A DNA stretch of 64,000 nt from Rhizophagus irregularis. Taxonomy: Eukaryota. The first letter of the stretch is position 1, and every line of letters begins with the position of its first letter. The translations under genes were made by a program, and so were the position numbers. Shown piece by piece: positions 3,991 through 64,000 of the stretch. Under the pieces are notes generated by a model. That model was given only the letters and a program-made list of their open reading frames with translations, searched no databases and was not told the DNA's origin. The stretch is taken from contig NC_089430.1 of assembly GCF_026210795.1 (NCBI RefSeq), positions 4,898,001-4,962,000 of the forward strand, given 5' to 3'.

Positions 3991-4132
3991 TTAAATGTTA
4001 AATAACTTAAGTGACAGATCGACACTTAACAGGATAAAATGATCGGCAACTTATAATTAATTTTATGGGCTTCGTTATTAATAAAAAAACTTTTTTTGGA
4101 ATCTTGCGTTCTTTATTATACAAACTTTCTCA

Positions 4133-7100: not shown

Positions 7101-7705
7101 TTTGTACCAAACCAATTGTTCGTCCCCATCCAAAGATTTCCGAACAAACTGAACCTGAGTCAGCTTGGACAATTCCCCTGCCAGGTAATCAATTGAAATA
7201 GATGTGTTTTTTTATAAACATGTTTGACTAACATGTTCTATAGACATAAATTCAGTTAGAATACCAGAATTCACGGATAATAACAATCGCAATGATGAAT
7301 TAGAAGATGCAAGGTAAAGAAACATGTAAGCTTAAACAGACATAATTCAAAAATTGAAAACTTACGTTTTTTTGCATTGAATCAGTTCTGTTGATGTGAA
7401 TTTTCAATTACCTATAGGATGGGTGTTGAAAAGCAATCAAAAATTAGGAGGGAAAGGAAGGGAGAAAAGAATGAAAAAGAAGGTGAAGGAGTTGTCGAAG
7501 GGTTTTTTTTTTGAATGGAAATCTCAACCAAAAGGATAAAATGTCGGCAAAGGATATGTATAATGAGCTGATGACATTTGTTGAATCTGGTGAATTGGAA
7601 GCTGAAGATGTCCCTAAGATAGCAATGATACAAAACTGGATTTCAGCTTATACACGAACATTTAAAGAGCAAGCTACAGAAAATATGGTAAACAACATAC
7701 TATAG
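4133..7705 (+). pseudogene. Sola3-like DDD transposase, multi-exon, with premature stops
   Basis: Motifs ADYKMRILPKSARETKAEFFGKCGW, QDAWF, ISDNGAHYH, FLEPCEAKTTIDSHHA and C-terminal GWVLK...IQNWIS. In-frame TGA at about 4892, 5494, 5779 and 6549. GT-AG introns are present. Confidence 0.75.
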
Positions 7706-16720: not shown

Positions 16721-18053
16721 TTAATGGATTAGTACCATTGATAAATTTATTCACCCGCCAGCCTTTCCTACCTTCTTTTTCTCGTTTTTCTTTTTATTTC
16801 CTTTCATTTCCCATTTTTTTCTTATTTATTTTCTTTGGTGTACCTTTTCTTTTTTTATGTTATTTTAGTTTAAGAATTTGTCTAATAGTATTATACTTGA
16901 GAAAATAAAATTTGGCTAAAGGTACGTTCCCTGTTTTTTCTTTCTTTGTTTTTAATTTTGCTTTTCATTTCTAATTTCTTTTTTTGTTTTTTGTGTCTTT
17001 AAGTTCTTTCAATTTTGCGTTAAAGATATTTCTTTCTTTTCTTTTTCTTCACTTTGTTTTTTTGTTCTTACTAACTTTATTTTATTTTTACTTTATGAAT
17101 TTCATTTTTCATTCTCCAAACTTTTTTTTTTGATCTTAAATTCTGTGGTCTTTGCTGTTGATTTGTTTGGATCTTCATGGGTTTACCTTAAATCTTTATG
17201 GGCTTCATTATTTACTTGGTACTTTTTATTTTATTAAACTTTTCACTATTCATTGTTCTTTTATTTCCATTCTTTTCATTTCTTTTATTTTTCTTGTTAT
17301 TCATCTCATTCTGTTTCTGTTATTCTTTTCATCATTTTTTTTATTCCGTTATTTCAATCAACTTGTTAGACATTTTCTTCATTTTTTATTGTTATAATTC
17401 ATGTATTATTATCAGGTTTTTCTTTTTATATCATTATTACTAGTCATTAAAAATTAAAATTTTGATTTTAAATGAATTTTCAATCAATAAATTTTCTAAT
17501 AAACTATTTTTAAAACCTATAAGTGCATAACTTTACAGTTTAATGTTGTATTTATCAAACGAATTTAAATAATTCAAATAAAATTGTTTTGTAAAAAAAG
17601 TATGCTTAATGAAAAATTCAAAAAATTAGCCAATTAAAAATTAGCCAATCAGAATTGAGATCAGATCTTCGCCCAGATTAGGAAATATTAATGATCATTA
17701 AGTTACATCATATGCAGTAAAATTAAATTATGATTACACAAAGTTATTTTAATATAAAATGATCTTCATACAGTACATATTCCATTCGGGAGTAAAAAAT
17801 TTCTTTTTCTTCTTACTATTGCAAATAATACTAAATACAGTATAAAAGGTAAAATAAGGTGTCAACTTATTTATTTAACTGGAAAACAACATAAAATTAC
17901 AGCTGGAAGATAAAAGAAACTAATCTAAAGATCAGCAACTAAATACGACCAATTTCTATAACCCTACAACTCCTTAAGAGATAGAGTCTTCCTGCTTGTG
18001 GCCTGAATACTCACCTACTATAGAACGAACATTGAGTGACCAATAAAGTGTCA

Positions 18054-21000
18054 ATGGATTCTTTAATTATATCTATTAAGAAATTAACTAAATCATGTGA
18101 TTGCGATCTTAGAGGCATTGAATGCAATGCAAAACGTTTTAAACGAAATTTTAAAAATTGGACTAGTGGTAATAATAATATTGATAAATTCATTCAAGAT
18201 ACTCAGCTATCAGAGCATACTAATTATGTAAGAAAAGCATTGGAATGGATACCTTATGATAGATTTTGTAATGTGAGATATACTGCAGAAGACAGAATGT
18301 ATAGAGCAAATTGGATTGATGGACATATAGATAAATGGGAGAACTATAATGAAAATTGGAAAAGAAAGGATCAAAATATGTTTGTAATTCTGAAAAATTT
18401 GGATGATTCAATTAATGTTACATTGAAATCTATTAAAGAGGTCAGTATAATAAATTTATTATTTAATCAAATTCTGGATATTTTAATATTTATTAATGTA
18501 TTTTGCTCAATGTACTGTTAATTGTAGATCACAATACATCATAAAGTTTACGGAATAACTCAAAACCCAGAAACTAATAGTTATATGGTAGTTGTTATAG
18601 ATATATGTAAAAAATGTAATAATATATGCAATGCAATACATTTTCAACAAAATTTTGAAAATTGGACCAGTGGTAATGGTGATATTGATGAAATTATTAA
18701 AGATACTCAATTATCAGCTCATATAGATAATAAAATACCAAATGTACTAGAATGGATACCTTATGATAGATTTATTAAAACTCAATATATTACTAGAAAC
18801 AAATTTGGTAAAGAATATAGAGCAAATTGGATTGATGGATATATAGATAAATGGGATAATGAAAGTCAAAATTGGAAAAGAAAAAACCAAAATATGTTTG
18901 TAATTCTGAAAAATTTAAATGATTCAACTAATTTTACATTGAAATCTATTAAAGAGGTCAGTATAATAAATTTATTATTTAATAAAATTCTGGGTATTTT
19001 GCTTAATGTATTGTTAATTGTAGATTACAAAACATCATAAAGCTTATGGAATAACTCGAATACCGAAATCTAAGAGTTATATAGTAGTTGTTAAAGATAT
19101 ATGTAAAAAATGTAATAATACATGCAATGCAATACATCAACGAAATTTTGAAAATTGGACAAGTTGTAATAAAAAAATTGATAAATTAATCCGAAATACT
19201 CAATTATCAAATTGTTATACAAATAATATATTAGAATGGATATCTTATGATAGATTTTGTGATATTAGAAATACTGCAGAAAATGGAGTATATAGAGCAA
19301 ATTGGATTGATGGATGTATAGATGAATGGGATAATATAAATCAAAAATGGAGAAGAAAAGATCAAAATATGGTTGTAATTCTGAAAAGTTTAAAAAATTC
19401 AAATAATATTGCATTAAAATTTATAAATGAGGTATACTAAATTTATTACCTAATAAAATCTTTAATTATAAATTTTAATTTATTATTATTATATTTGTAG
19501 GTTAAATTAGGAATAACCAAGAAACCAGGTAAAAAAAATTATATGATGGTTTTAACATGTAAAGTCAAATGCAATAGCATGTGTAATTCAAAATACTTTC
19601 AACAAAATTTTGGAAATTGGACTAGTGGCAATAATAATATTGATGAATTTATTCAAGATACTCAGATATCAGATTGTTACACAAGTAATATATTAGAATG
19701 GATACCTTATGATAAATTTCATAATATTAAAAATATTAAAAGTATTACAAAAGATGGGTCTACTAATATGTATGAAGCAAATTGGATTGATGGATGTATA
19801 GATAAATGGGATTATGAAAATCAAAATTGGAAAAGAAAAGAACAGAACATGTTTGTGATCTTGAAAAGTTTAGATAATATGAATGTCATAAGATTTATTA
19901 ATGAGGTATAATAAATTTATTATTTAATGGAATTTTGAATGCTTTAATTTTAATAACATTATTATATTTTAGGTTGCAGTATACAAATTTTATGGAATAA
20001 CTCGAGATCCAGAATCAAGAAATTATATGGTAGTTTCAACATGTAAAGAAAAATGTAGTCATGTATGTAACGCAATACGTTTTCAACAAAATTTCAAAAA
20101 TTGGACTAGTGGTAATAATGATATTGATAAATTTATTCAAGATACTCAACTTTCAACGCATACGGTCTATGAAATAAGAAATGCGCTAGAATGGATGCCT
20201 TTTGATAGATTTTATGACATTAAATATATTGCAAAAGGCGGGTTTAGTACAGTGTATAAAGCAAATTGGATTGATGGACATATAGATGAATGGGATAACA
20301 AAAATCAGAATTGGAAAAGAAAAGATCAGGGTATAACTGTAGTACTGAAAATTTTAAATAACTCAAAAAATGTTACATTGAAATTTATGAATGAGGTAAA
20401 TTTATTTCAATTTTTTAATCAAATATATAATACCATAAATACTAATACATTATGTTATGTATAGTTTTCGTTGCATTATAAAGAAGGAGTAAATAATGGT
20501 TTTATCATTGAATTTTATGGAATAACCCAAGATCCAAAAACAAATAATTATATAATGGTTTTGGAATATGCAAAGAATGGAAGTTTGCGAAATTATTTAA
20601 ATATAAATTATAATAAATTAAGATGGAGTGATAAGATTTATCATTTACTTAATATTACATGTGGAATTCAACATATTCATAATAATGAATTAATTCATCG
20701 GGATTTACATGTTGGAAATATACTGGTGGATGATGATACTATTATAACTGATATGGGATTATGTAAACCTGCGGATTACAACGCATCAGAAAATACAATA
20801 AGCAACATATATGGTGTTTTGCCTTATATTGCTCCCGAAATTTTACGAGGCCAAACTTATACTAAAGCTGCTGATATTTATAGCTTGGGTATAATTATGT
20901 ATGAAATTATTTCTGGATTGCCCCCATATCATGATGTAGACCATAATAAAAATCTAGCAATAACAATTTGTCAAGGACTTAGACCAAGGTTTAAAATTAA

Positions 21001-21779
21001 AGTACCTCAGTTGATTGTACATCTAATTAAAAAGTGCCTAGACGCAAATTCGTCAGATCGACCTACAGCAAATGAAATTGAGGAAGTTTTATATAAATGG
21101 TATTATATGCCAAGTGACAATCAAACAGTAAATTTACAATTGGAAATTAAAAATGCAGAAGTAATTAATAATAATTTATCAGATAGCAATATACCTTCAA
21201 CTAATTTAGGATTATATGAAATACATCCAGAGGCTATTTATACAAGTAGATTACTTAAATTTTATGATGATACAATTGGCGTGGAGTCTTTAGGTATTGA
21301 TTAATAAAAAATTTTCAAATTGAGTGTCAAAGTAATAATTTTTAATCCCTTAAATAGAGTCCTTACAAATTAATATTTCTCAATTGAATATTAATAACAA
21401 TCTTCCTGAACCGAAAAATTCTGATGATTATTATAAGCAAAATGATAATATAATAAGCGAGGAATTTTTAGGTATTGTTTATAACTTGTACTTAAAGAAG
21501 AATGTTGAGAATATAAATACTAATTAAATCTTATTCACTTAAATAGAATACCTACAGAATGCTAATTCTCAGTTAAAAATTGACGATATTTTTTCCAAAC
21601 CAAAAAATTCTGTTGATTATCATAAAAAAGATGTTAGCATGGAATCCTCAGGTATTAGTTAACAAAAAAAATAACTGAATTATTTGTAAAGAGTACTCAT
21701 GAACTTTATTTATTAAATAGCGTCTTCATCTTTACAAATTGATATTTCTCATGATATTACTAAAAATTCTGACGCATGA
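18054..21779 (+). CDS. Tyrosine-kinase-like protein kinase 1 with five tandem Cys-motif/N-lobe modules
   Basis: Inferred exons 18054-18440, 18528-18956, 19024-19431, 19501-19905, 19973-20395 and 20465-21293, then short tail exons. Motifs KGGFSTVY, VVLK, HRDLHVGN, DMG, APE, DIYSLG. The 3' end is uncertain. Confidence 0.88.
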
Positions 21780-30216: not shown

Positions 30217-30359
30217 AAATGTGAAGACAATGAAATGATTTTCATGTGCACGGACCGACCAGACCGTTTCGCCACAAATACTCCATTCTAAGTAAAATAA
30301 TTTTTTTCTTTTTACAATTGCAAACAATATATAGATATAAAAAGCGAAGCAAAGTATTA

Positions 30360-33300
30360 ATGGGTTCTTTAATCAAGTTTATTGAAAAGCTAGTTAGGCC
30401 ATGTGATTGTGATCGCATGGGTATTGAATGTAATGCAAAACGCTTTAAACAAAATTTTAACAAATGGACTAGTGGTAATAATCATATCGATAAATTTATT
30501 CGAGTTAATCAGTTATCGTTATCGCATCGTTATCTAAGTAGTGTGATGGAATGGATACCTTATGATAGACTTTATAATATTAAATATATTGTATCTGGAA
30601 AAGTGTATAGAGCAAATTGGATTGATGGATATATACGTTATTGGGACCATAAAAATCAAAATTGGGAAAGACTAGATCAAAATATGTTTGTAATTCTGAA
30701 AATTTTGAATAATCCAACGAATATTACATCAGTATATATAGATAAGGTACAGTATATAAAAAAATTATTATTTAACGAAACTTTGAAAGATTTAGTTCTT
30801 ACTAATATACTTTATATATATATATTATATTTTGCAGATTGCAATGAACAACGAAGTTTATGGAATAACTCAAATCCAAAAACAAAATGTTATATGGTGG
30901 TTTTGAATGATAGATGTAAAATATGCCATTATATATGTAATGCAAAACATTTTCAACAAAATTTTGAGAATTGGACTAGTGGTAATAATGTTATTGATAA
31001 ATTTATTCAAGATGCTCAGCTGTCAGATCATACAAGTGAAATACACAGATCCCTCAAGGAATTCTTTTTTGAGAGTGGGCCAACAGAAGCATTAGAATGG
31101 ATACCTTATAATAGATTTCACAAAATTAAGTATATGTCAAATGACTGGTTTGGTAAAGTGTATATAGCAATTTGGATTGACGGATATATACATCATTGGG
31201 ATCGTAAAAACTTAACCTGGAAAAGAATAGGTCAAAATATGCCTGTAATTCTAAAAAGTTTAAATATTAATCCAGCGAGAATTACATCAGAATTTTTAAA
31301 TAAGGTATAATAAATTTGTCATTAAATAAAATGGCTGGAATTTGTATTTTATTTTATACTGACGTATTAATTTAATTATATTGTAGTTTTTAGTAACAAA
31401 TAAAGTTTATGGAATAACTCAAGATCCCAAGACCAAAAATTATATTATGGTTTTGGATTATATATGTGAAACATGTAAAAGTGCATGTTACGCAATATAT
31501 TTTCAACAAAACTTGGAAAATTGGACTAGTGGCAGCAAAGATATTGATAGATTTATTCGAAATACTCAGCTATCAAACCATGATAATAAGTGCCAAGCAT
31601 TAGAATGGATACCTTATGATAGTTTTGATGATATTGAATATATTGCAAAAGGTGGATTTGGCCTAATATATAGAGCTAGATGGATTGATGGACATATAGA
31701 TAAATGGGATAACGATAATAAAAATTGGGGGAGAAAAGATCAAAATATGTTTGTAGCTCTTAAAATTTTAAATAAATCAAAAAATGTTAAATTGGAATTT
31801 ATGAATGAGGTGATTGTCTTATTTGTCTAGTAATTACTTAATTAATATTTAAATTTAAATACTAATACCTATTCTTCTTTTTTAAATATATATAGATTAC
31901 ATCTCATTATAAACTAAATTCGCATAAATGTATTATTAAACTTTATGGAATAAGTCAAGATCCTGAAACAGAAAATTACATTATGGTTTTGGATTATGCA
32001 GAAAATGGTGATTTCCGAAGTTATTTAGATGCAAATTATAATAAACTAAGTTGGAATAATAAGATAAATTACCTACATAGCATTGCACATGGACTTAAAG
32101 ATATCCATGAAAGTGAATTAATTCATCGAGATTTACATATTGGTAATATATTAAGGCTTAGAAAGATTACTTGCATAACTGATATGGGACTATGTAAACC
32201 TGCAGATTACGATGCTTCAGAGAATCCAAAAGTCAGTGCATATGGTGTTTTACCTTATATTGCTCCTGAGATTTTACGAGGCCAAATTTATACCAAAGCT
32301 GCAGATATTTATAGTTTTGGTATAATTATGTATGAAGTTATTTCTGGATTACCTCCATATTATGACACATACCATAACGAAATCTTAGCAATAAAAATTT
32401 GTAAAGGGCTTAGACCAAGGTTTAATATTAAAGTACCCCAATTGATTGTGCATTTAATTAAAAGATGTTTGGACGCAAATCCATTAAATCGGCCAAAAGC
32501 AGAAGAAATTAAAAAGACCTTGAGTCAGTGGTTTAGGGAATCATTTGATCTTGAATCTACAAAATATGCAGAGATAAAAAATCAAATTAAAGAAGCTGAA
32601 ATATTTAATATATCCTCAGATAGTAATACATTTTCAACTAGTTTAGGATTATCATATGAAACACATTCAGAAGCTATTTATACAAGTAGACCACTTAATT
32701 TTGATAATCTTCCTGAACCAAAAAATTCTGATGATTATTATAAGAACAATGACAATATAATAAGCAAAGAATTTTCAGGTATTTATTAATAGAAAAACAT
32801 TCATATTAATATATAAGAAATACTAATAAGATTTTAATCATTAAATAGAATCCTTGCAAATTAATATTTCTCAATTGGAAAATAACAATAACCTTTTTAA
32901 ACCAAAAATTTCTAATAACATTAGCAAGAAGTCTTTAGGTATACTTATAAAAAAAAATAATGATTTTAAAACAATACTAATAAATCTAAATTCATTAAAT
33001 AGAGTCCTTGCAAGTTGGTACTTCTCAATTATTTATTGGTAATGGTAATATTTCCGAACTAGAAAATTCTGTTGAGCATTATGAACAAGATGACAATATA
33101 GCCGGCAAGGAATCTTTGGGTATTGTTTAATAGCTTGTTATTTCTAAAAACATTGAGACTTATTATAAAGTACTGATTAGAAATATTCTATAATAGAATC
33201 CTTACAAATCAATGCCACTCAATTGAAGATTGATGATAATAAACTTTCAAAATCAATAAATATTGTTGATTATGAAAAAAATAATAACATACTTATCATG

Positions 33301-35552: not shown

Positions 35553-36926
35553 AAGCCTGTAGATCATTATTAATTTTCACACTGCAAAAAATAGAAAAAT
35601 GTTTGTGGAACGTGCTTACGTGCTCAATTCAGATCACGTTAAACGTAACACCTGCTTAATGTTTAAAACGTGTTTAAAACATGTTTTAAAACGCCAAAAT
35701 TGTTTTAAACCATCGATAATTGCTAACCTATATTATTTTGTCGATCATACAGTTAATTATGCATAATATGCAGGTGATATTACATGTTTCTAAAAAAAAA
35801 CATTATTGTCAGTTTAGGTGGTGAAAAATATAAAAATATGGAATTTTTTTAAAAAAAACTTATAAATAGATTAAATGATTATGAAATATACATATATTTT
35901 GTTTTTCGAATATTTCAGGCATCATTATTATTTCCATTACATAATAATAAATAAGAAAATGATGCTTTCGACATTGTCGATCTAAATTATGAAAAAATAT
36001 TTTTGTGATTGGGTGTTTAAATGATCGATCTAATTAATTTCGTACATACCAAGAAATGTTGTGTATCATCACTACAGATCTTTGTTACACTTTGGACTAA
36101 TAATTCCGGACATCATGTTACATTAATCACAGGGTGATAACAGATAATAAAATGATAGTTAACAATCAAATGGAATGGTACATGTGTTAATGAGTAGTAA
36201 TTCAGATATGACGATCAGTTTTTATTCAAATGTACGTTAAGAATATTATTGGCTCTGAATAAATGTCCAAGCAAATTTTTCTCGAAAGTAAAATGGCTAA
36301 ATAACTTTTTATTGAAAATAAAAGTTAGTTCTATGAAAGATTCGAAAATCTATCCAAAAAACTGGGTAGAATTAACGGAGACTTAAAAGAACTCGCAAAA
36401 AACCTTTTCCAAACTTAAACATGCGTACAACTAATAGTAAAATTTTCTAAAATCACCTGACCTCTGCATACCTATTTGAGGGATATATATAACGAAAATT
36501 CAGTGGACGACCTGACTATGCGTCAACTTGTGCATCGGTTGACTATGGCCAAGGTCATGCTTACATAATCGATGATCATCTATCGCCTAATCAAAGAAAC
36601 ATAACATTCTAACTAAAATAATCTAATAAATGTCCTAACAATATAATCTACTGTGTTGTTTCATTTGTTAGATTTTATAGTGTTACAATATAAAACAAAA
36701 GTTTAATTGTTTTTATTATTTTTATTATATTAATTTGTTAACTAAATCTATACATTTCACCGGTGATTAATAATTACTTCGGACGGAAATGATCAACAAT
36801 TACAAGCGTATGTGGTATGTCACATGTATACATAAGTATTGTCTGAAAATAGTTTTTTTTTTATTACTAAAAAAATTTTTTAACCGTAACCTAATAGGTA
36901 AAAGGTGAAGCAAAGTAGTAATCTCA

Positions 36927-39900
36927 ATGAGCTCTTTTATCAAGTGTACTAAGAAAACAACTAAGTCATGCGATTGTGATTATAAATGTAATGCAACACG
37001 TTTTAAACAAAATTTTAAAAATTGGACTAGTGGTAATAAAGATATTGATAAATTCATTCAAGGTACTCAGCTGTCAGAACATTCAATCTGTGGAATAGAA
37101 AATGCATTGGAATGGATACCTTATGATAGATTTTATAGCATTCAATATATTTCAGAAGGCCGATTTGGCAAAGTATATAGAGCAAATTGGACTGATGGAC
37201 ATATGAATTTTTGGAGCGACGGAAATCAAAATTGGAAAAGAGAAGATCAAAATATGTTTGTGATTCTGAAAAGTATAGATAATATAAACATTGTAAAATT
37301 TATTAACAAGGTAAAATTGATTTATCACCTAATGTAATTTTAACTTTTACTAACACATATTTTTAGATTATTATATACTATAATGATAAAGATCAGAATG
37401 GAAGAAGTCTTAAATTCTTAGAAAATTTTTTCTTCCATAATCATCTACAATTTAATAATGCAAATAATGTCGCATCAAAAATTAAAAATGAGGTATATTA
37501 AATTATTAATTAAAATTGGGCAATTTTATCTTACTAATATATAATCAATATTTGTAGATTGCAATACATGATAAAATTTATGGAATAACTCAAGATCCAA
37601 AAACCATGAATTATATGATGGTTTTGAACACTATATGTAAAAAATGTAAATCTGTATGTAATGCAATATATCAACAAAATCCGAATTGGACTAGTGGCGA
37701 TGATATTATTGATAAATACATTCAAGATACTCAGTTATCAAAACATAATAGTTATTTTGAATGGATACCTTATGATAGATTTTATGGCGTTAAATATACT
37801 GCAAAGGGCGAGTTAGACAAAGCGTATATAGCAAATTGGATTGATGGATATATAGATAAATGGGATAATTCTACTAAAAATTGGAAAAGAAAAGGACAAA
37901 ACATGTTTGTGATTCTGAAAACTAGAGATAGTCTAAATATTGAGGTATAATAGATTGTTTTTTTTCAAAAAAAAAAAATAAGCATTTCTTTATAAAATAT
38001 ACTATCCCAAATAATCACTACACAAGAAATACTCAGACCGTTGTACATACGGATAGGAACTGACTCGCTCGGTTCGTTCCAGTTCTAATTGAACGGACTG
38101 ACTTGAGCCAGTTCAAATTGGATGAACGATTTAGTCAGTTTGGTACCAAAATTTGTTAGAACCGATTTAGAACTGAAAGTACTGATCAAACTGCTCAACC
38201 GCGAACTTTTTCCATCCCTAGTTATACAATAGATAAATACGAAATATTATAAATTTGTTGTTTAATGAAATTTTAATTTTTATTCACATATTTTAGATTT
38301 CGACATACTATCGAAATCGAAATACTTCCACTATATGCATATCTACGAAAAGTTCTTTTGATAATGCTGCATCAAAAATTAATAATGAGGTATATTAAAA
38401 TTATTATTTAATGAAATTTGTGGAAATTTAATCATATTAATATATTCGATTTATAGGTTGAAATGCATCATCAAATTTATGGAATGACTCAAGATCCAGA
38501 AACTAAGAATTATATGGTTGTTTTGAATGCAAGATATAACTGTATGTGTAATAAACAAAATTTTGAAAGTTGTAATGCGAAACATTTTCAAAAAAAATTT
38601 AAAAATTGGACTAGTGGTAATGATGATATTGATAAATTCATTCAAGATACTCAGTTTTTGGCTCATTATAATATAAGCAAAGCATTAGAATGGATACCTT
38701 ATAATAAATTTCGTAATATTAAATATATTGCAAAAAATGGTTTGGGTGAGGTATATAGAGCAAATTGGATTGATGGATATATAAGTAAATGGGATATTAA
38801 ATATCAAAATTGGAAAAGAGAAGACAAAAATATGTTTGTAGTTCTGAAAAGTTTAAATGATCCAAAAAATATTTCATTAAAATCTATTGAAGAGGTCAGT
38901 ATTAATAAATTATCCAATGAAATTTTTAGATATTATAACTTTAACTAGTATATTATATTTACTGTATTATTGTAATTGTAGATTGCAGCACCATATAAGG
39001 TTTATGGAATAACTCAAGATCCAAAAACAAAGAATTATATGATGGCTTTAAGTTGTAGTAAATGTGAAAAATGTGAAAGTGCATGCAATGCAATATACTT
39101 TCAACAAAATTTTGAAAGTTGGACTAGTGGTAATGATGATATTGATAAGTTCATTCAAAAAACCCAGCTTTCAGCTCATTATGATGTAAGCAAATCATTA
39201 GAATGGATATCTTATAGTAGATTTTGTAATGTTAAATATATTGCAAAAAATGATTTTGGCGAGGCGTATAGAGCAAATTGGATTGATGGATATATACATA
39301 AATGGAATAATGAATATCAAAATTGGAATAGAAAAGATCAAAATATGCTTGTAGCTCTGAAAAGTTTAATTGATCTAGAAAAATATATTGAAAAGGTACG
39401 ATTATTATTTCATAAAATTATTAGATATTCTAATTTTTATTAATATATTGTATTTATTGTATTATAATTGTACAGTATAAAGTTTATGGAATAACTCAAG
39501 ATCCAAAAACAAAGAATTATATGATGGTTTTGAACAAAATATGTGATGAATGTAAATGTGTGTGTAATGCAATGCATTTTAAACAATATTTTAAAAGTTG
39601 GACTAGTGGTAATGATTATATTGATAAATTTATTCAAAATACTCAGCTATCAGCACATACAGCCTATGGAGCACGAAATGCATTAGAATGGATTCCTTAT
39701 GATAGATTTCATGGCATTAAATACATTGCAAAAGGTGGATTTGGTAAAGTGTATGGAGCAAATTTGGTTGATGGATATATAGGTGAATGGAATGAAAATC
39801 GGAAAAGAAGTGAACATAAATTTGTGGCTCTGAAAATCTTAAATAATTCACAAAATATTTCACTTGATTTTGTGAATGAGGTATGAATTTATTAAACTAA

Positions 39901-41261
39901 TAAGGAAAATGAAGTGAAAGCTTATATAATTATTATTTTTTTTTTTGTAGATTACATTACATCATCAAGTAAATAATAATGTTAATGTTATTAAACTTTA
40001 TGGAATAACTCAAGATCCTGAAACAAAACATTATATAATGGTTTTAGAATATGCAAGCAAGGGAAGTTTACGAAATTATTTAGATACAAATTATAATACA
40101 TTAAGTTGGAAAGATAAACTTCTTCATTTTTGTCATATTGCATCTGGACTCGTAGATATTCATAGAAATGAATTAATCCATCGAGACTTTCATATTGGCA
40201 ATGTATTAGTGTCTAATTTTGTAAAAATAGCTGATTTGGGATTATGTAAACCTGCAGACTACAGTGCATTAGAAAATACAAGAAAAAATGTCTATGGTGT
40301 TTTACCTTATGTGGCTCCTGAAATTATACGAGGATATGATTACACTAAAGCCGCTGATATTTATAGTTTCGGAATAATTATGTATGAAGTAATTTCTGGA
40401 TTACCTCCATATCATGATGTAAGCCATAATGAAATGTTAGCAATAAAGATTTGTAAAGGACTCAGACCAACATTTAATATTAAAGTACCTCAATTGATCG
40501 TGCAATTAATTAAAAGATGTTTGGATGCAAATCCAGTAAATCGTCCAACAGCAAAAGAAATTGAAGAAATTACGAAAATATGGTGGCATGAACCAACAGC
40601 AGAATTACAAAAGCAAATTAAAGAAGCAGAAAAGATAAATAAAAATATATCAATTATTAGTATTATACCTTCAGCTAGTTTACGAATATCATACAAAACA
40701 CATTCAGATGCTATTTATACGAGTAGATTGCTTAATTTTAACAATCTTCCTGAACAAAAAAATTCTGATGATTATTATGAACAAAATGATAATATAATTA
40801 GCAATGAGTTTTTAGGTATTGTTTAATAATATGTTTAAAAAATTATTAATTATTGTACTACTAATTAAATTTAATCTATTGGATAGAATCCTTACAAATT
40901 GATATTTCTCAATTGAATATTGATGATAGCGATAAACTTTCTAAACCAAAAAATTCTGATGATTATGAACAGAATGATGATAATATGATAAGTAAAGAAG
41001 ATTTAGGTATTATCTAATAATTTATTATTTCAAAAAAATCATTAAAAATACTGAGACTTATATAGTAATAATAATCAAATTTACTCTATTGGATAGAATC
41101 CTTACAAATTGATATTTCTCAATTGAACGATTTAGTGAGTGTATAAGTTTAATTTTATTACATTAACTTTTGCTTTTCATTATATTAATATTTTGCTTAA
41201 TTTATTATTATTTTTTTCTCTAGACCAAAACAGGGAATCTAAAGGCAAAGATAAAATCTAG
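36927..41261 (+). CDS. Tyrosine-kinase-like protein kinase 3 with five modules and two spacer exons
   Basis: Exons 36927-37310, 37367-37492, 37558-37944, 38297-38389, 38457-38894, 38982-39395, 39476-39880 and 39951-40815, then tail exons to TAG at 41259-41261. Motifs KGGFGKVY, VALK, HRDFHIGN, DLG, APE. Confidence 0.88.
38040..38220. mobile_element. hAT-like terminal remnant in a kinase 3 intron
   Basis: GAAC/GTTC-rich repeats end in ccatcccta (reverse complement TAGGGATGG). The host intron is about 350 bp against 55-90 bp for its paralogs. Confidence 0.5.
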
Positions 41262-53297: not shown

Positions 53298-56200
53298 TTA
53301 AGATTTATTATTCCGATCTTAAAGAAAAAATCGATCACTATAAACATGTTATAATTTACCATCTTCGTTAATGTTCAATTGAGAAATATCAACTTGTAAG
53401 GATTCTATTCAATATAATAATTTTAATTAGTACTTATAGTCTCAATATTCTTGATATCATTAATTTCTTTAGGAGTGAAACGAGCGACGGTAACAAATTA
53501 TTAAACAATACCTGAAAATTCTTCGCTTATTATATTATCATTTTGTTTATAATAATCGTCGGAATTTTTTGGTTCAGGAAGATCATTAAAATTAAGTAAT
53601 CTACTTGTATAAATAGCTTCTGAATGTGTTTTGTACGATATTCCTAAACTAGTTGAAGGTATGATGCTAGTCTGTAAATTATTATTTATTTCTTCTGCTT
53701 CTTCGATTTGCTTTTGTAGTTCTTCACTTGGCCCATAACACCATTGACTCAAAATTTCGTTAATTGTTTTTGCTATTGGTCTATTGGATGGATTTGCGTC
53801 CAAACATCTTTTAATTAAATAAACAATTGACTGCGGTACTTTAATATTAAACCTTGGTCTAAGTCCTTGGCAAATTTTTATTGCTAGATTATTATTATGG
53901 CTCATGTCATGATATGGAGGTAAACCAGAAATTAATTCATACATTATTATACCTAAACTGTAAATATCAGATGCTTTTGTATAGCTTTGACCTCGTAAAA
54001 TTTCAGGTGCAACATAAGGTAATATACCATAGACATTATTTTCTGATGTATCGTAATCTGCAGGTTTACATAATCCCATATCGGTAATTTTAGCATAATT
54101 AAATACTAATACATTTCCAGAATGTAAATCTCGATGAATTAGTTCATTTTTATGAATATGTTCAAGTCCAGTTGCAAGATATTCTAAATAACCAAACTTA
54201 TAATTCCAACTTAATTTAATATAATTTGTATCTAAATAATTTCGTAAACTTCCATTCTTTGCATAATCTAAAACCATAATATAATTTCTTGTCACTGGAT
54301 CTTGAGATAGACCAAATAATTTAATAATATTTTTACCCAAATTTACTTTAAAATGTGATGCAACCTAAAAATAGTATAATTAGATTAATAAAGATTAAAT
54401 ATTCAAAATTAATTTAGATAATAAAATAATTTCACCTCATTCATAAATTCTAATGTAACATCTTTTGAATCATTCAATCTTTTCAAAGCCACGAACATAT
54501 TTTGATCTCTTCTTTTCCAATTTTGATTATAGCTATCCCATTTATCTATACATCCATCAATCCAATTTGCTTTATAGACTTTGCCAAACCCACCTTTTGC
54601 AATATATGTAATATTATAAAATTTATCATAAGGTATCCATTCTAGTCCATTGTTAGTATGTGCTGATAGCTGAACATCTTGAATAAATTTGTCAACATTA
54701 CGATTACCACTAGTCCAATTTTTGAAATTTCGTTGAAAATGTATTACATTACATACACGATTACATTTTTCACATCCTTTGTTCAAAACTATCATGTATT
54801 TTTTTGTTTTTGGATCTTGAGTTATCCCACAAATTTTACGGTGTTCGTTAACCTATTAATACGATAAATTAATTAAAATGAACTTTTCAACAATTTCAAA
54901 CAATAATTTATATACCTTATTAAGTTCTAATATAACATTTTTTAAGCCATCTATACTTTTCAGAACTACAAACATATTTTGAACTCTTCTCCAATTTTGA
55001 TTATAGTTATCCCAGTTATCTATACATCCATCAATCCAATTTGCTCTATACACTTCGCCAAATTCATTTTCTGCAATATGTTTAATATTACAAAACCTAT
55101 CATAAGGTATCCATTCTAATGCATGACACGTATAACTATGATCTGACAGCTGAGAATCTTGAATTAATTTATTGATATCATTATCACCACTAGTCCAATT
55201 ACTAAAGTTTTGTAGAAAATACATTGCATTACACATGTCTTTACATTTTTTGCATATTTCATTCCAAACTAACATATAGTCATTTGTTTCTGGGTCTTGG
55301 GTTATTCCATAAACTTCATGATGAGTTGCAATCTACAAATATAATGCATTAACAGAAATCGCATTTTAAGATTTCATTAATTAATAAATTCATACCTCAT
55401 TAAATTCCAATTCAATATTATTTAAATTATTCAAACTTTTCAAAGCAACAAATATATTTTGATCTATTCTGCTCCAATTTTGATTATGGCTATCCCATTC
55501 ATCTATACATCCATCAATCCAATTTGCTCCATACACTTTGTAAAATTCACTCTTTGCAATATGTTTAATATTACACAACCTGTCATAAGGTATCCATTCT
55601 AATGCTTTGATTGAACATTGATTATGCACTAATAATTGAGTACCTTTAATAAATTTATCAATGTTTTTATTACCACTAGTCCAATTTTTGAAGTTTCGCA
55701 GAAAATACATTGCATTACACATGACTTTACATTCTTTGCATATTTCATTCCAAACTAACATATAATATTCTGTTTCTGGATCTTGAGTTATTCCGTAAAC
55801 TTCATGACATCTTGCAATCTAACAAATATGCTATTAATAAAAATTTTATTTTTAAAATTTTATTAATTAATAAGTTCATACCTCATTAATTTTCAGTGTG
55901 ATATTACTTAAATTTTTTAAACTTTTTAGAACCACAACCATATTTTGATCTCTTCTTTTCCAATTTTGATTATCGACATCCCAGTTATCTATACATCCAT
56001 CAATCCAATTCGCTCTATACACTTTGCCAAACCTACTTTTTGCATTATATGTATTATTATAAAATTTATTATAAGGTATCCATTCTAATATTTTTTTAAA
56101 TACTTCATAGTTATCATGCACCAATAGCTGCTTATCTTGAATGAATTTATCAATATAAATATTACCACTAGTCCAATTTCTGAAATTTCGTTGAAAACGT

Positions 56201-56779
56201 ATTGCATTACATACATTTTTACATTTTTCACATACATCATCTAAAACCATCATATAATTCGTTGTTTCTGGATCTTGAGTTATTCCATAAACTTCGTGAT
56301 AAAGTGCAATCTACAAATATAGTATATTAACAAAAATTGCGTTTTAAAATTTCATCAAATAATAAATTCCGTCATACCTCATTAAATTCCGATGCGATAT
56401 TATTTAAATTATTTAAATTTTTTAATGTCACGAGCATATTTTGATTGTTTCCTCTCCACTCTTGAATATTATTATCCCATTCACCTATACATCCATCAAT
56501 CCAATTCGCTCTATACACTTTGTTAAATTCATTATCATTTATAATATGTTTAACATCGAAAAATCTATTATAAGGTATCCATTCTAATGCTTTGCTGAAA
56601 GAAAAATTATGTGCTGATAACTGAGTATTTTTAATGAATTTATCAATATTATTATTCCCACTAGTCCAATTTTTGAAATTTTGTTTAAAATGTATCACAT
56701 TACATATATCATTACATTTCTTACATGTTTTATCATTAGCATGTAATATATTAGTTAATTTCTTGACAAAAGAACCCAT
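53298..56779 (-). CDS. Tyrosine-kinase-like protein kinase 4 with five modules
   Basis: Exons 56779-56378, 56310-55882, 55818-55396, 55332-54916, 54852-54436, 54364-53512, 53404-53360 and 53317-53298. Motifs KGGFGKVY, VALK, HRDLHSGN, DMG, APE. Confidence 0.9.
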
Positions 56780-57489
56780 TGAGACTAGATTATGGAAGAA
56801 ATCAAAGAGTTGACTGAAAACAATGCTTTATTCTTAATATTGTCGTACCTGTTTCAAATATTATGGTTTTACAGCAAATCAACTTATGATCGGCAAGTAA
56901 CATCTGGCTAAATATAGAACTGGTATAGAATTTGAACAAGAAGTGAGTAACGTAGATCGGTTATGTGCAACGTAAAAGTCACATGTCTACTTACGTACAA
57001 TATTTACGGGTACGACGGAAACATGTCATGTATAGAGGCCTATATATGTCTGTATAGTGATCAACGTACGGTATGTATGGTCATTTTTACCATACTGTAG
57101 GGTGGGTGATGTATACTGTATGGTGATGTATACCGGACGTTACCATACATTGACCACTATACGTACGTACATAGCTCACCATACGCTGCATGTTTTCTAT
57201 ATAATCTTTATTGGGTTTATTTACTATAGTAGTAATATACAGGGTACATAACGGTCGTAACGTAAAGTGAAATTTTTTTTATTTTACGTTCATTAGTGAT
57301 ACATACAAATAATGTTTTTATTGATTAATTAGTAAAAACGAATGGACAGTATATAAAAAGGCATAACTTTTAACTAAAAAAGTCAACAAAATTATACATG
57401 AGGCTACACAAGTCATATGGTATATTGTAAGAAGAAATAGCAGGTTAGTCTCATTCATCATTAGCCACATATTTTGTGTAACATTTACA

Positions 57490-58397: not shown

Positions 58398-59826
58398 TGT
58401 ATTTTTTTTTCGCACGTTAAAATTAATCATATAAAAAAAGTATACATTTTCATGTACTTAAATATTAAAAGAATAAAAAAAATATGTACTTTGTACTGTA
58501 TATATTATAATACAGCCAATTTTTTAACGATTTAATATCATTATAAAGCAGTTAAAAAAATGTTAGTTTATTTTGAGAATACCAAACTTTATTACCCTAT
58601 AAAAAATAAATGTTCCTAGACATATAATAGTACAGAAAACATTCCATAAACACACTCATTTCCGGATACTCATTTTGTCTGGAAATTGTACTAGTTTTTA
58701 TCTTATCTTGTATTTGTCCATATTTATCCAGAATTTTTAATAATCCATTGATTCCATTCTATTGGAAAATCAATATGAACAATTCAGCCAAACTTATAGA
58801 CTAATTCCAGCTGAATTTATAGGATAATTTCCAAACGAAAGAAAGTTATTTTTGTTTATAAAATTGTTGTTATTATTTGTTCAGTTTTTGAATTTGTTCA
58901 GTATTTAAGGCATATTTGAATTTTGTCAACATTATTAATCATTAAATCTCGTAAATTTTGTTAAAGATCATCATAATTAAGATTTTTAAATAATATTTTT
59001 TTAATTATGAAATATAAGAATTCTAACTGAAGGATATCTAAACCTTGGAATATGAAGCGAATGTACTAGTCAAGAGTGTTGAGGTACTAAATACATCTTA
59101 AATGTTAGACTGATTCTTTAGGACCTCTACCAAGGTCAGAAGTGAGCTTTTGAATAGTTTTTATTTATGCTTATAGGCGCCAGTTTGTTAAAAGAAGGTT
59201 TTTTTTTGAAAAATTTTGTTTTTATGATCATTGATCGGAAAGAGTTCCTCTTCTCCTTCAAATATTCGCCAAAATAATTGACTGCTAACTTTAATATTTG
59301 AATTTTGAATACCTTTCGCATCCAAATGAAACTGGAGTAATTTATGGTGAATTGTATTATAAAAAAGAAAAATCATAATATAAAAATGTACTATTTTTTC
59401 AGGGCCAGAATTACGATAATGTCAGTGTCAGTAAGCGTCTAAAAAGGAAATAGATTCTGGTTGACATTATCTATAAAATGAAGGATCTACAGTAAACCCG
59501 TATCAGTCCCTCCTGAAGCAAAATACTGTAAATACCTATTCAACTCTATAATTGTAATAATTATAAAAAAATATAGTAGCGAGTATTTTAACTTTTTGCT
59601 TTTTTTGAAAATGAAATATTAGTTAGGCAGAGCGAGAACAAGAATAATAAACTAAGCTAAATCTAATCTAAAAAAGTAACATAAAAGCAAGAGCGAGAAA
59701 AAAAACTAGAATATTGTCTATTAACTTTTTTCTTATTCTTGTCTTTCTTTTTTACTGTTTGCCATTCCCCTTTATCTTTATCTTCATGGATCAAGAACAT
59801 GTTTACTTCACTGAAACCCGCATATT

Positions 59827-59899
59827 TGAAGCGAAGCAGTTGTATAGTTGTTACCTATTGGTAACCAATAGGCATTAGGTAAGCAACTGCTTCGCTTCA
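59827..59899. repeat. Nested hairpin
   Basis: Perfect 16-bp arms tgaagcgaagcagttg / caactgcttcgcttca enclose cctattggtaaccaatagg. Confidence 0.85.
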
Positions 59900-61450
59900 T
59901 ATTTTTTAATTTATTGTACTATAACATTGATAGGCAACAACTTAGCAGCGGCTTGGTGAGATTATTGATTAGCAAAATTTTGTAAAATTCGTATTTGTTA
60001 TATTTATTTAAAATCGCCTAAAAAAGTCACGATATTGCTGCAGGTTGGCTGCGCAACTCCAACGAATTAAAATGTAACATGATGCAGATCTTTTTTTTGA
60101 AAAAAAAATTTAGCTTTGATAATTACAAAAATAAATTATAACATAGACGTATACACATCTTCTCATTAAAGTATCTATCTATCTAATTTATCTATTCTAA
60201 TATCGAATAATCTTTTGCGTATCTTGAACTTCTAAAAGATGTAAATCTATTATACATCCATAAATCCGAATCATCTAACATTAACCATTTCTAGATGATA
60301 ATACATAATCCATCTGTCGCACACGTCTCTACTAAACCTGTCTTTTATTTTTACATGATCCATAACTCAAAATTCTTGTACAATTACTTTTACCCATTCT
60401 TTTCATTTTTTTTTTTGTAATTCCATACTGTTTTATTTCCCATTTATTTATTGCATTACATCGTGGTATCTATATATACATTTTCACAAATTCCTTGATA
60501 TCTTTAAACAAAGTTGATGATGCCCTCTTTGTATCATTTATCTCGAGATCTACCCAGTAAGCGGTTGATAGCTTCATGAAAGATTCGTATATTAAAATTA
60601 AACATATCTGGAGTCGCTGTACGATCTGCCATAATCATCTGTACTGATGATCTCCACTCCATATTTATATCCTGAATATTCATTCTCAATTATCTATTCA
60701 TGTCTAACGTCAACCATTCCGCTTTACATTTAATTTGATTATATTTTTTCATGAATTCTCTTGGACTTTCTTGCACCATTTCCAATACACCATATATTCC
60801 TATCGATATTAATATAAACTCATCCTTTTACACGATGCAGATCTACTAACGAATTTGTCATATAAATGTAATGTGTCTCCAAGAATTAAAATGTAACACG
60901 ATGCAGATCCACTTTTAACGAATTTGTCATATAAATGTGTCGTCGGGCTGGTAGTGTCGTCACTGCATTCCGCCACCTCGGCCTCATGGCCTCGCAGTAC
61001 TTACATCCCTCCTCCGTGAGGCGGGGAATCCCTATACATCTGAAACAATATGAAACAAGATCTGAAACATAACAATATAAGCAAAAAAGGATAAAATAAG
61101 GGAAAAGAGAGGAAAATAAGAGAGAATCAGAGAGGGTGTTTCGATGTTTCAGATGTTTCGGCAATTTTGGTAAAAGTCAGGCGAGGACAACCCTCCCAGA
61201 AAAAGTTTTGATTTTACCCCCCCAGATCCGAAACTTCTGAAACATCTGAAACTGATTCAGGATTCCGTTCGTTTTCTTATTGGAGGCAGTGAGATAGCAA
61301 ATAAAGTAAACAGATAGGTTAATAACCCCTAGAAGGACTGTAGAACCACAGGAAGGTAACCGGGTAGGAGCGCGGATCTTTGGAAAAAATATATTCGGCA
61401 ATTGAAGATTAGGTAACTATAAATTAGTACTCGATTTGATAGAATAAAAA

Positions 61451-61975
61451 ATGACATATACCGTAGAAAAGTTGGCAGGAATCTTTGGCCACACAGTCCC
61501 CGATGTTATGGGTATTAATAGGGAGATCGTAAAAAGCCACCAAAACCCGCACGCAGTATCAGTAATCCCCAAACTTGTAGGCCATATCCTGGAACGTATT
61601 CCAAGTAGCAATTTTGGACCGCATCTTCTAGAAGTCAACCCAATCTGGAGAGCCAAAGCTGAACAAGTACTCTGGAAGCGGCATAAAGAAGCCGAGGAGG
61701 TATACAAACAGGCAGTAGACTACTACAGGGAGGCCATTGACAATTTCAATAAAGCCGATCAGAAAAAATACACTAGGTTCGCAGGAATGGTGGCAGTAGA
61801 AAGAGCTCTCCTCAGATGTGGCTTTATAACGCAAGAGTCCGACTGGGAGAAATGGACTCAAATAACGTATAACATCCAATTGCTTAAAGAAGGCCGCACT
61901 CTTGATGACTCAGACGATGAATCAGATGATGGAGAGGTATCTCTCGATGACTCAGATGATGAGGAATACTTTTAG
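61451..61975 (+). CDS. Hypothetical protein, 174 aa, acidic tail
   Basis: Intact intronless ORF inside the GC-richer element; no family recognised. Confidence 0.7.
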   Translation: MTYTVEKLAGIFGHTVPDVMGINREIVKSHQNPHAVSVIPKLVGHILERIPSSNFGPHLLEVNPIWRAKAEQVLWKRHKEAEEVYKQAVDYYREAIDNFNKADQKKYTRFAGMVAVERALLRCGFITQESDWEKWTQITYNIQLLKEGRTLDDSDDESDDGEVSLDDSDDEEYF

Positions 61976-61984
61976 AAGGCGATA

Positions 61985-62305
61985 CTAATCTGTCTTCCTC
62001 TTTTTTGCCTCCTTAAGGCATTTATCAATACACTGTTTACACGCGTCATCAGCCTCTAAAATTTTCTGCCCGAGTTTTTTGCATTGCCGATTGTACACCG
62101 TCTGATGTCTTTTAGCCGCGGTTTCTTTTTTCTTCTCCTTAGTTTTCTTTTTGATAACCCAGTCTATCCCAGTAAAAGTATTCTTGTGCATACCACAAAC
62201 TGTGCAATCACCATGCAGCCGGTAACGCCCATTTGTGGTCATATCTTGTATTTCACTAGCAGTTTCAGTTTCCTTCTTACACTTTAGGCAGTAAAATCGT
62301 GTCAT
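61985..62305 (-). CDS. Small basic Cys4 zinc-ribbon protein (DUF5679-like)
   Basis: MTRFYCLKCKKET...TTNGRYRLHGDCTVCGMHKNTF matches the YCxKC...NGR...CxxCG pattern. Likely start is the ATG at 62305. Confidence 0.7.
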   Translation of the reverse strand: MTRFYCLKCKKETETASEIQDMTTNGRYRLHGDCTVCGMHKNTFTGIDWVIKKKTKEKKKETAAKRHQTVYNRQCKKLGQKILEADDACKQCIDKCLKEAKKRKTD

Positions 62306-62349
62306 CTTAAGATTTGAAGTCCGAAATCTTTCCTTTAATTTGTCGTAAT

Positions 62350-63445
62350 ATGTCGCATTTAGAGAATTATTACAAATACTACAATCTCTCCGGAGTACCA
62401 GCACGAATTCTAAAAGGTGAGGAGCACTACAACCTATACAAAAAGCCCTAAAGGAAAAGTCATCAGAGCGTCCACGAGTAGTTGTATGGAAACCAAATGC
62501 GACGCATCAGGCAGATCTCGCAGAGATGCCAGTCGACCCCAAAGGATTCCACTATTTCCTCGTAGTGGTGGAAGTCGCGGGTAAACAAGTCGATGCAGAA
62601 CCCCTAAAGGATAAGACTGCAAATAGGGTTCTAAACGGGTTTGTCAAAATCTACAGAAGAAATCGTATTAAGCCACCAACACACAGACTGGAGACAGACT
62701 CTGGATCAGAATTCACTAACGACCAGGTACGTGATTTTTCCTGAACAGCCTAGGGGTAATGATGAGGTTCGGCGAACCAGGAAGACACAAACAGCAATCA
62801 TACGCTGAACGAGCCATCCAAGCAATCCAGGAACCTCTCCTAAAACGAATGGTGGCACAGGAGTTGAAGACCGGATTGACATCTGTGGAATGGTCAGAAG
62901 ATTTCCGTGATGTAGTTAATAAAATAGATGAAATCTGGCAGAGAAATCCCCCAGACATTCCGACAGGGTCACCCAAAGTGTCAAAAAAGACAGAACTTCT
63001 CTCTGAAGGAACACATGTCCGAGTCAAGTTAGACGAACCTATTTCAGTACTCGGGAATAAACTCCATGGAAAATTTCGTACAGGTGACATAAGATGGAAT
63101 CCCAATATCCGTGTCATCAAAAAAATGATCCTCTCACCCGAACAGCCTCCTACGTATCTTCTTGATGGACCACACGGGCGTCTAGGTGTATTCAGATGTG
63201 CGTACACCCGAAAAGAGTTGCAGATTGTTCCAGAAAATGAACATCCCCCACCTGACTCCGTGATAAGAGGGCAACCCAAAAGATTTGTACCTGAGCGGAT
63301 ACTCCGGCATCGCATTAGGAAGGGTCAAGACCAGTATCTAGTCAAGTGGGAACGATACCCAGATACCGAAGCCACTTGGGAACCCGCTGACCGGTTGGAG
63401 GAGGATGTCCCTGCCTTAATCCGCAAGTTTGGGAATAAAAAATAA
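62350..63445 (+). pseudogene. Retroviral-type (Polinton-like) DDE integrase with C-terminal chromodomain, two frameshifts
   Basis: MSHLENYY...HQADLAEM...YFLVVVEV...AEPLKDKTA...LETDSGSEFTN...YAERAIQAIQ, and chromodomain ERILRHRIRKGQDQYLVKWERYPDTEATWEP. Single-base losses at about 62447 and 62737. Confidence 0.88.
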
Positions 63446-63452
63446 ATATTCC

Positions 63453-63998
63453 CTATTTTTTGTCTCCTCGATTCACATCAGAAACTATCGGGATAAAAAC
63501 ATTCTTCTCATTACAAGTAAGGGCGATATGTTCACGTGATTCATGGACATCATAATTGTAACGTTTCAGACACGTCCGGCTCAATCCAATCTCCCTATGC
63601 TTGTAATCGCTTAAAACCGCGAGATTCTCAGTGATTACACAATCAGGGGTTAGTTTGATTGACACACCTTTTACCATGCCGAATGTCCTACCAGAACCCG
63701 GAGCGCCGGATATGTTATGTGTAATACTCTTGTCGATATCCAACCCTAATTCTTCAGCGGCTTCCCTCTGAATAAAAGACGCGTTAGCACAAGTGTCTGC
63801 TAAACACTGAATTGCTATCCCATTGACCTTCCCATCCAGCGCTAAAAGATCTTTAGTATTCTCCAAACGAGCTATGTCAATATCCATCGGGTCATCTTCC
63901 CTGATATCCTCTTCTTGTTTTTCCTCAACTAGGTCTTCCGGAATCTCCGTACTTTTACGAGCAGACTTTAATTCTTCCCGAAGAATCTTGCGGAGTAA
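63453..63998 (-). CDS. Retropepsin-like aspartic protease domain protein (5'-partial)
   Basis: GKVNGIAIQCLADTCANASFIQREAAEELGL...ISGAPG...IGLSRTCLKRY. The frame stays open upstream to the window edge (LLRKILREELK...EDDPMD). Confidence 0.75.
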   Translation of the reverse strand, partial: LLRKILREELKSARKSTEIPEDLVEEKQEEDIREDDPMDIDIARLENTKDLLALDGKVNGIAIQCLADTCANASFIQREAAEELGLDIDKSITHNISGAPGSGRTFGMVKGVSIKLTPDCVITENLAVLSDYKHREIGLSRTCLKRYNYDVHESREHIALTCNEKNVFIPIVSDVNRGDKK

Positions 63999-64000
63999 TT

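Follow-up and report, generated by a model that had tools for sequence, protein, structure and literature searches.

The last 3 kb of a window of 64,000 nucleotides (nt) of Rhizophagus irregularis (assembly GCF_026210795.1, contig NC_089430.1, positions 4,898,001 to 4,962,000) probably forms the left end of a Glomeromycota Polinton 11-12 kb in size, relatives of which combine a protein-primed family B polymerase (pPolB), a packaging ATPase, and a chromodomain integrase with a Gag and a retropepsin. In this element, a -1 frameshift probably yields the protease as a Gag-protease fusion, and a Gag shell would carry the element DNA. We are confident of the architecture as described here, and for the packaging of DNA into Gag shells we see about an even chance.

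Gene order in the window and in related loci

Four genes in alternating orientation were identified at the right end of the window (Table 1), separated by 9, 44, and 7 bp, in agreement with an earlier note on this DNA. The integrase, listed there as 1 gene, was not a single open frame, being split by 2 one-base frameshifts near positions 62445 and 62734. Both breaks are missing from many other copies in contigs of public sequencing runs and therefore represent either decay or an assembly error in the window copy, which looks dead or crippled unless the breaks are assembly errors. The integrase relative in locus L004 is intact, with 363 amino acids (aa) and residues D56, D117, and E154. The catalytic Asp codon of the retropepsin was located at 63795-63797, within a DTCA motif. 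Over 181 aa, the protease open reading frame (ORF) shared 98% identity with P0147, an R. irregularis gene model of the same subfamily in which a coiled coil and Gag lie upstream of the protease; the window ORF is the 3' end of a longer Gag-protease unit running past the window edge. Among the best 120 of 149 matches to this protease, the top named relatives were gene models of R. irregularis, while R. clarus and Paraglomus ranked lower.

An alignment of the protease was used to scan metagenome contigs, yielding 40 loci that are not independent of each other (L029-L032 are near-identical). An integrase on the opposite strand adjoined the protease in 23 of the 40 loci, corresponding to 23 of the 30 informative ones, with the 2 stop codons 14-56 nt apart and 1 case of overlap, and this convergent arrangement persisted to about 50% protease identity. 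The remaining loci included 10 that were too short to judge, 4 with DUF5679 next to the protease, and 3 with neither gene (1 of these, L042, being 29% identical). The protease is thus no chance insertion; the pairing of retropepsin and integrase described in the earlier note proved to be a stable linkage when gene order was checked, as was its statement that the protease ORF ends at a stop codon without a reverse transcriptase (RT) and converges on the integrase. In L007, L008, L013, L022, and L026, the protease was followed by DUF5679 or an ORF1-like gene with no integrase between, and these loci are possibly non-autonomous or rearranged subfamilies.

Protease and integrase trees built from 19 rows, comprising the window and those loci in which each gene was sufficiently covered, contained the same 4 supported subfamilies, the integrase alignment being made without L037 and L038, which have in-frame stops. 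The ratio of nonsynonymous to synonymous substitution (dN/dS) against close relatives was 0.09-0.12 for the protease and 0.05-0.07 for the integrase (3 pairs each), indicating from sequence comparison that both genes are under purifying selection. The L006 protease, the L032-L031 Gag pair, and 2 integrase pairs were dropped from this analysis as out of frame, and Gag was redone.

These results bear on the alternative of a Ty3-type long terminal repeat (LTR) element remnant that landed inside a Polinton by chance, or of an assembly artefact at the join, for which the broken integrase of the window copy and the likeness of Gag plus a -1-shifted retropepsin to the 5' half of a Ty3-type element could be cited. 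However, the identical junction type in 23 loci, with stops no more than 56 nt apart down to about 50% protease identity, refutes chance nesting. The protease stop without RT after it, the lack of direct repeats in L029, and the purifying selection also argue against this alternative, as does a 546-nt contig of run X6 (depth 75, flank about 2-6) covering positions 62963-63507 across the protease-integrase junction, and we find it scarcely credible.

The whole gene set was identified on a single contig, L029 (11,021 nt), which starts with pPolB and 4 small ORFs, 1 of them with an F-box. These are followed by an A32-type ATPase in the opposite orientation, a coiled-coil protein of 411 aa, an ORF of 471 aa (Gag), the protease, the convergent integrase-chromodomain, and DUF5679. 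The pPolB assignment rests on motifs (Table 1) and on relatives, since the L029 protein itself had no Pfam polymerase match and no PDB sequence match; relatives with PF03175 were abundant in R. irregularis and were also present in R. clarus and Diversispora. The packaging ATPase was matched by Pox_A32 in L029 (E 3.4e-9) and L021 (E 1.7e-6) and was head-to-head with the coiled-coil/Gag block in 5 loci from 3 divergent groups. A Gag match was identified upstream of the protease in 27 of the 40 loci. In R. irregularis, a pPolB model from a contig of equal size was 5-11 accession numbers away for 5 of 10 comparable Gag/protease gene models, where pairs were picked by shared contig size from an incomplete pPolB list and accession order serves as a proxy for gene order. 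R. irregularis model P0438, from the pPolB cluster, carries a DUF5906 D5-like helicase domain that is 38% identical to the helicase of the virophage-like contig L044 and is missing from L029. The searches for pPolB, packaging ATPase, capsid or Gag, and RT suggested in the earlier note therefore recovered the first 3 in relatives, with no RT in L029.

We further searched L029 for the features by which Polintons and Ty3/gypsy elements are told apart. A double-jelly-roll major capsid protein (MCP) was not found with Pfam or PHROGs, and no free ORF of fitting size was present, a result that covers L029 and not necessarily all subfamilies. No family match to a single-jelly-roll penton was obtained in L029 (a 200-aa ORF gave a weak Pox_D5 lead, 0.87), and no adenovirus/Ulp1-type cysteine protease was matched among its ORFs. 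None of its ORFs matched virophage MCP families, which the same Pfam scan did match in L044 and L047. Regarding retroelement features, no RVT match indicating RT-RNase H was found among the L029 ORFs, the protease stopping and then meeting the integrase head-on, and no direct repeat was detected as an LTR at E 0.01 in L029, which is without its very ends. By these features, L029 differs from canonical Polintons as well as from Ty3 elements, as the earlier note had suggested.

We also considered that a jelly-roll capsid lies undetected elsewhere in the element, with the Gag-protease as a passenger. Capsids of other "capsid-less" Polintons were found later according to the accessible text of PMC7805220, no full-length copy of the window subfamily was seen, and the helicase domain of P0438 has no counterpart in L029. 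In opposition to this, coding sequence makes up 90% of L029 and no internal gap exceeds 135 nt, its unassigned ORFs are 129-200 aa long or coiled coil, no capsid family of Pfam or PHROGs was found in it, the same Pfam scan catching the L044 and L047 capsids, and its size fits the 11-12 kb of the Glomus Polintons tabulated in PMC4028283. A hidden jelly-roll capsid is accordingly very improbable.

Gag capsid, shift site, and protease motif

The 471-aa ORF matched Pfam Retrotrans_gag weakly (E 0.08), with stronger matches in some relatives (to 3.7e-6), 24 of the 150 plus 27 listed proteins having been scanned. With a profile of this protein, 363 clusters at 50% identity were gathered. Residues 1-275, modelled from 85 sequences, reached a predicted local distance difference test (pLDDT) score of 85.5, compared with 39 for a single-sequence model. 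In a VIA comparison of the model with 48,161 chains, the top 38 rows were retroviral, retrotransposon, or domesticated Gag capsids, with PEG10 (Z 11.5, root-mean-square deviation [rmsd] 2.3, 85 residues aligned), dArc2 (Z 10.0), and murine leukemia virus (MLV; Z 9.9) as the best rows, and the first unrelated row was at Z 4.1. Copia was aligned over both domains (Z 9.8, rmsd 8.8, 163 residues). Foldseek gave nothing at E <=0.001 for this model, its best match (2.1e-3) being PEG10, in agreement, and the Atlas linked Gag to Retrotrans_gag clusters (0.93). The ORF is thus a Gag by its modelled capsid fold. A CCHC knuckle was identified in some Gag relatives. The N-terminal domain contains a Gly/Ala/Asn-rich insertion of about 100 residues (L032:3280-3590, residues about 72-175), modelled confidently and with a near-invariant Trp, which is possibly a surface protrusion in the model.

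At the end of Gag, a run of at least 7 A followed by a stop, with the protease in the -1 frame, was found in 29 of the 40 loci. Of the others, 3 had an A-run with a slightly altered tail, 3 had no run in the searched stretch, 3 had a broken protease frame, and 2 began inside the protease frame. Both ribosomal shifting and polymerase slippage are compatible with such a site. The GT after the A-run was considered as a splice donor, but the -1 frame is open from the A-run onward and this reading, although possible, is unneeded. The catalytic Asp was kept in 111 of 120 protease relatives, and DTCA or DSCA was present in 108.

Element edge, accessory genes, and other features of the window

The 3.06-kb end stretch had a guanine-cytosine (GC) content of 43.4%, above the host level as the earlier note had held (27.2% in the rest of the window and 34.4% in the top 3-kb host window). 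Summed contig depth, which is not a copy number, climbed about 100-fold rightwards from about 60930-61000 in 4 of 4 public runs, which indicates a repeat family that begins, on its left side, at about 60936-60940. Among the contigs listed, 5 contigs from 4 runs carried other DNA up to a point where the match set in, at 60936 or 60939, and 2 contigs (runs X2 and X3) spanned the exact left junction without a difference. The left edge at 60936-60940 is therefore real, and the sharpness reported for it previously was borne out by the depth step. Its proposed TGT start proved insecure, because these bases (60936-60938) close a 23-nt host-side direct repeat (60847-60869 = 60916-60938) and the contig starts fall at 60936 or 60939; the edge of the element is given as a range. 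Short subterminal repeats were also present at the far end of L029 (positions 52-125). No terminal inverted repeat pair was found in L029, which stops short of both ends, and the window has 1 end only.

On the host side, the stretch 60057-60938 is bounded by 34-nt direct repeats (60064, 60883), has the 23-nt repeat at its junction with the element, and contains a decayed reading frame on the minus strand; its depth in run X1 was somewhat greater than single copy. An imperfect palindrome of 79 nt lies upstream of the element at 59824-59902.

The first gene of the element, ORF1, had no significant Pfam and no PHROG match and shared 34% identity over 56 aa with its positional counterpart in L004. 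We take it to be possibly F-box-like from its motif, without Pfam support. The ORF1-like gene of L004 lies between 71-nt direct repeats that are 93% identical (3378-3448, 4041-4111), possibly a cassette for the gain and loss of accessory genes. DUF5679 and the integrase were head-to-head in L004, L012, L029, L030, L037, and L038.

Table 1. Features of the element in the window, with the polymerase gene of the related contig L029
Feature	Position	Strand	Basis and remarks
Left terminal non-coding region, candidate terminal inverted repeat	60936..61450	.	Depth step, contig starts, GC step
Subterminal inverted repeat	61146..61252	.	25-nt arms 61146-61170 / 61228-61252, 84% complementary
ORF1 (variable accessory gene), helical protein, 174 aa, acidic tail	61451..61975	+	ORF call
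DUF5679 small CxxC/CxxC protein, 106 aa	61985..62305	-	Pfam PF18930 E 4.5e-18
DDE integrase with C-terminal chromodomain, no N-terminal HHCC finger	62350..63445	+	Pfam rve E 1.2e-7, Chromo E 2.1e-17
Retropepsin domain (63456-63887) plus linker, open at window end	63453..64000	-	Asp_protease_2 E 2.1e-8
pPolB, 627 aa (putative)	L029 513-2393		Motifs DxxSLYP, NxxWG, HTDG

Elsewhere in the window, a hAT transposase remnant was identified at 426-1476 (Dimer_Tnp_hAT E 7.5e-22) and a foldback element at 7988-8950, which has 318-nt arms with 95% complementarity and further inverted repeats nested inside. The gene sets at 4085-7201 and 12148-16133 are related to each other (65% DNA identity over 392 nt), multi-exon, and fragmented; they gave no Pfam match in the 4 pieces scanned and look like decayed transposons. 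Four related gene copies with internal repeats were found at 18036-21304, 30234-32789, 36909-40826, and 53501-56827, at least 3 of them ending in a tyrosine-kinase-like domain; such copies are presumably typical of a family expanded in mycorrhizal fungi.

Relation to known elements and proposed cycle

The integrase, with its rve and Chromo domains and nearest viral relatives that also bear pPolB, is of the Polinton type proposed in the earlier note. As in canonical Polintons and adintoviruses (Polintoviricetes), it stands alone and accompanies a pPolB, which lies outside the window in L029, and an A32/FtsK-type packaging ATPase, found in L029 and L021. In contrast to them, the fungal element has a Gag and a retropepsin and no double-jelly-roll MCP or adenovirus-type cysteine protease. 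With Ty3/gypsy (Metaviridae), PEG10, Arc, and Copia it shares the 2-domain capsid fold, a retropepsin in the -1 frame, and the integrase chromodomain, the Gag of the relatives lying past the window edge and upstream of the protease. Unlike Ty3/gypsy, it has no RT/RNase H, no LTRs, a virophage/Polinton-type integrase on the opposite strand, and the capsid insertion of about 100 residues. Nor is it a Ginger element, in which an integrase-type transposase is the only core gene, as it is a multi-gene element with pPolB and ATPase.

An alignment of the integrase identified 4 IMG/VR contigs, 1 of which had already been recovered with pPolB. In L044, the integrase-chromodomain (41%) and pPolB (32% identical to that of L029) are head-to-head and adjoin a Sputnik/V20-type MCP, and L047 had matches to major and minor virophage capsids. 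Both of these contigs encode a virophage-type MCP, an integrase-chromodomain, a short pPolB, and a D5-like helicase; they are Lavidaviridae-like and differ from the fungal element in their Sputnik/V20-type MCPs, in having no Gag or retropepsin, and in an ATPase barely similar to its own. No Gag or retropepsin was found in any of the 4 contigs. Virophages with jelly-roll capsids thus stand among the nearest IMG/VR relatives of the integrase and pPolB, which points to a probable exchange of the capsid module, presumably in the fungal lineage. Contigs L045 and L043 also encode pPolB and integrase, with several leucine-rich-repeat-like genes in L045:1-12698 and a fibre-like gene in L043:1-6373, and no capsid was recognised in the fetched part of either. 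IMG/VR scans with Gag, protease, and ATPase gave no match at a sensitivity bounded by the patterns used, and no match in the phage collection and no Rfam family were found. Two phage contigs from a first IMG/VR integrase scan (L001, L002) were dropped, their 43-aa match being spurious.

The suggestion in the earlier note of an undescribed class of element did not stand, since a Glomus/Rhizophagus Polinton family and a Gag/retropepsin label in a figure legend were already on record. Table S1 of PMC4028283 gives 3 entries for Glomus, sized 11,019-11,954 bp; none has an MCP, a penton, or a protease, and 1 has an ATPase. These elements (Polinton-1_GI, P_Gi1.1, and P_Gi1.2, from Glomus intraradices = Rhizophagus irregularis) come from the same host group, encode pPolB and integrase, and have no jelly-roll capsid or cysteine protease, as here. 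Our element very probably belongs to the same family as Polinton-1_GI, matched by description and not by sequence identity. In the accessible text of their sources, the Glomus Polintons are treated as capsid-less, with no mention of Gag, retropepsin, or a -1 shift, and the accessible part of PMC7805220 again gives no MCP for them. Maverick expansion in Glomerales is described in the available portions of PMC11952901 and PMC8647823, and a 2026 preprint (10.64898/2026.06.19.733378) groups Glomus/Rhizophagus ATPases with Maverick-Polinton ones, its accessible text not containing the word "gag".

The label itself comes from PMC8502044 (Starrett et al. 2021) and its preprint, where the Fig. 5 legend defines "Matrix/Capsid/NC/Pro" (Gag/retropepsin) for an unnamed MELD element and the Fig. 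3 legend mentions a Rhizophagus element with an adintovirus-like PolB. Section 3.4 of that paper does not discuss the Gag-bearing element, nor does it give a fold, shift site, conservation, or mechanism. The "Rhizophagus glomeromycete fungus MELD virus" (NCBI taxid 2707321; name used in the available text of 10.1101/2022.05.25.493380) is the element with the adintovirus-like PolB and probably has the present architecture. The accessible parts of PMC11296320, PMC11161782, PMC5751038, PMC10175614, and PMC10120064 added nothing on Gag, and no paper discussing a Gag-bearing Polinton was found in a literature search with most subscription journals outside its coverage. A Gag-type Polinton has thus probably been labelled once before in a figure and not analysed in the searchable literature.

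The cycle that we propose starts from the gene set and order of L029, the Gag capsid fold, the shift site, purifying selection, high copy, and the lack of RT and LTRs, and we infer its steps as follows. By analogy with Polinton biology, pPolB would copy the linear DNA from its ends, and a -1 shift would yield the protease as a minor Gag-protease fusion. As in retroelements, Gag would assemble, and the rarer Gag-protease would dimerise and mature the shell. The A32-type ATPase would load DNA into this Gag shell, which would replace the jelly-roll capsid, the integrase would insert the DNA with the chromodomain steering it to methylated chromatin, and the particle may pass from nucleus to nucleus within the coenocytic hypha or through fusions between hyphae. 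A bolder reading, which we advance tentatively and at somewhat less than even chance, is that of a hybrid double-stranded DNA virus of mycorrhizal fungi joining 2 viral realms, in which Polinton/virophage replication, integration, and DNA pumping are combined with a Gag capsid and maturation protease and no reverse transcription, with the ATPase filling the Gag shell with protein-primed linear DNA and particles spreading between nuclei and hyphae.

The main rival holds that the element is a capsid-less Polinton and that Gag-protease is long-kept cargo, serving as an RNA-carrying Arc/PEG10-like shell, as a scaffold of the integration complex, or as a dominant-negative against host Ty3. It draws on the best structural match of Gag, PEG10, being a domesticated Gag, on the CCHC knuckle of some relatives being an RNA-binding feature, and on the tabulated Glomus Polintons, which in PMC4028283 are without MCP, penton, and cysteine protease and in 1 case also without ATPase. 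In opposition, the Walker motifs of the ATPase are conserved, its identity is 73% over 235 aa across groups in which the Gags share about 35%, it stands head-to-head with Gag, and the shift-and-protease arrangement is suited to particle maturation. We consider the cargo explanation unlikely.

Several observations weigh against a DNA-carrying Gag Polinton. The full set was found on 1 molecule in L029 alone, the protease of which is 50% identical to that of the window, and the pPolB link of the window subfamily is indirect, through accession adjacency, with the other 5 of the 10 Gag/protease models 22-188 accession numbers from pPolB. Seven loci had no convergent integrase, and deep protease and integrase distances agreed weakly (Mantel rho 0.17, 61 of 2000 permutations). 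No strong hairpin was found 3' of the shift site (5 sites folded, -6 to -8 kcal/mol), and Gag dN/dS (0-0.73) was weak, being near saturation. The protease motif in most relatives is D[TS]C[A] and not the usual retropepsin D[TS]G, which makes activity uncertain. Neither a right end nor a pair of terminal repeats turned up in the window or contigs, nor did a target duplication, which is 5-7 bp in Polintons, and we know of no A32 ATPase that fills a Gag shell.

The Gag-bearing Polinton that we favor would explain the capsid-less look of the Glomus Polintons, in which the jelly-roll capsid and cysteine protease have apparently been replaced as a unit by Gag and retropepsin, with the ATPase retained. 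If particles exist, DNA without any RNA stage would travel in a retroviral-type shell, and the pumping ATPase would serve a capsid family outside its known partners. According to the available portions of PMC11952901 and PMC8647823, the family has recently expanded in Rhizophagus. As this major symbiont of plants is noted in one paper to lack a transformation protocol, a native integrating vehicle would also be of practical interest.

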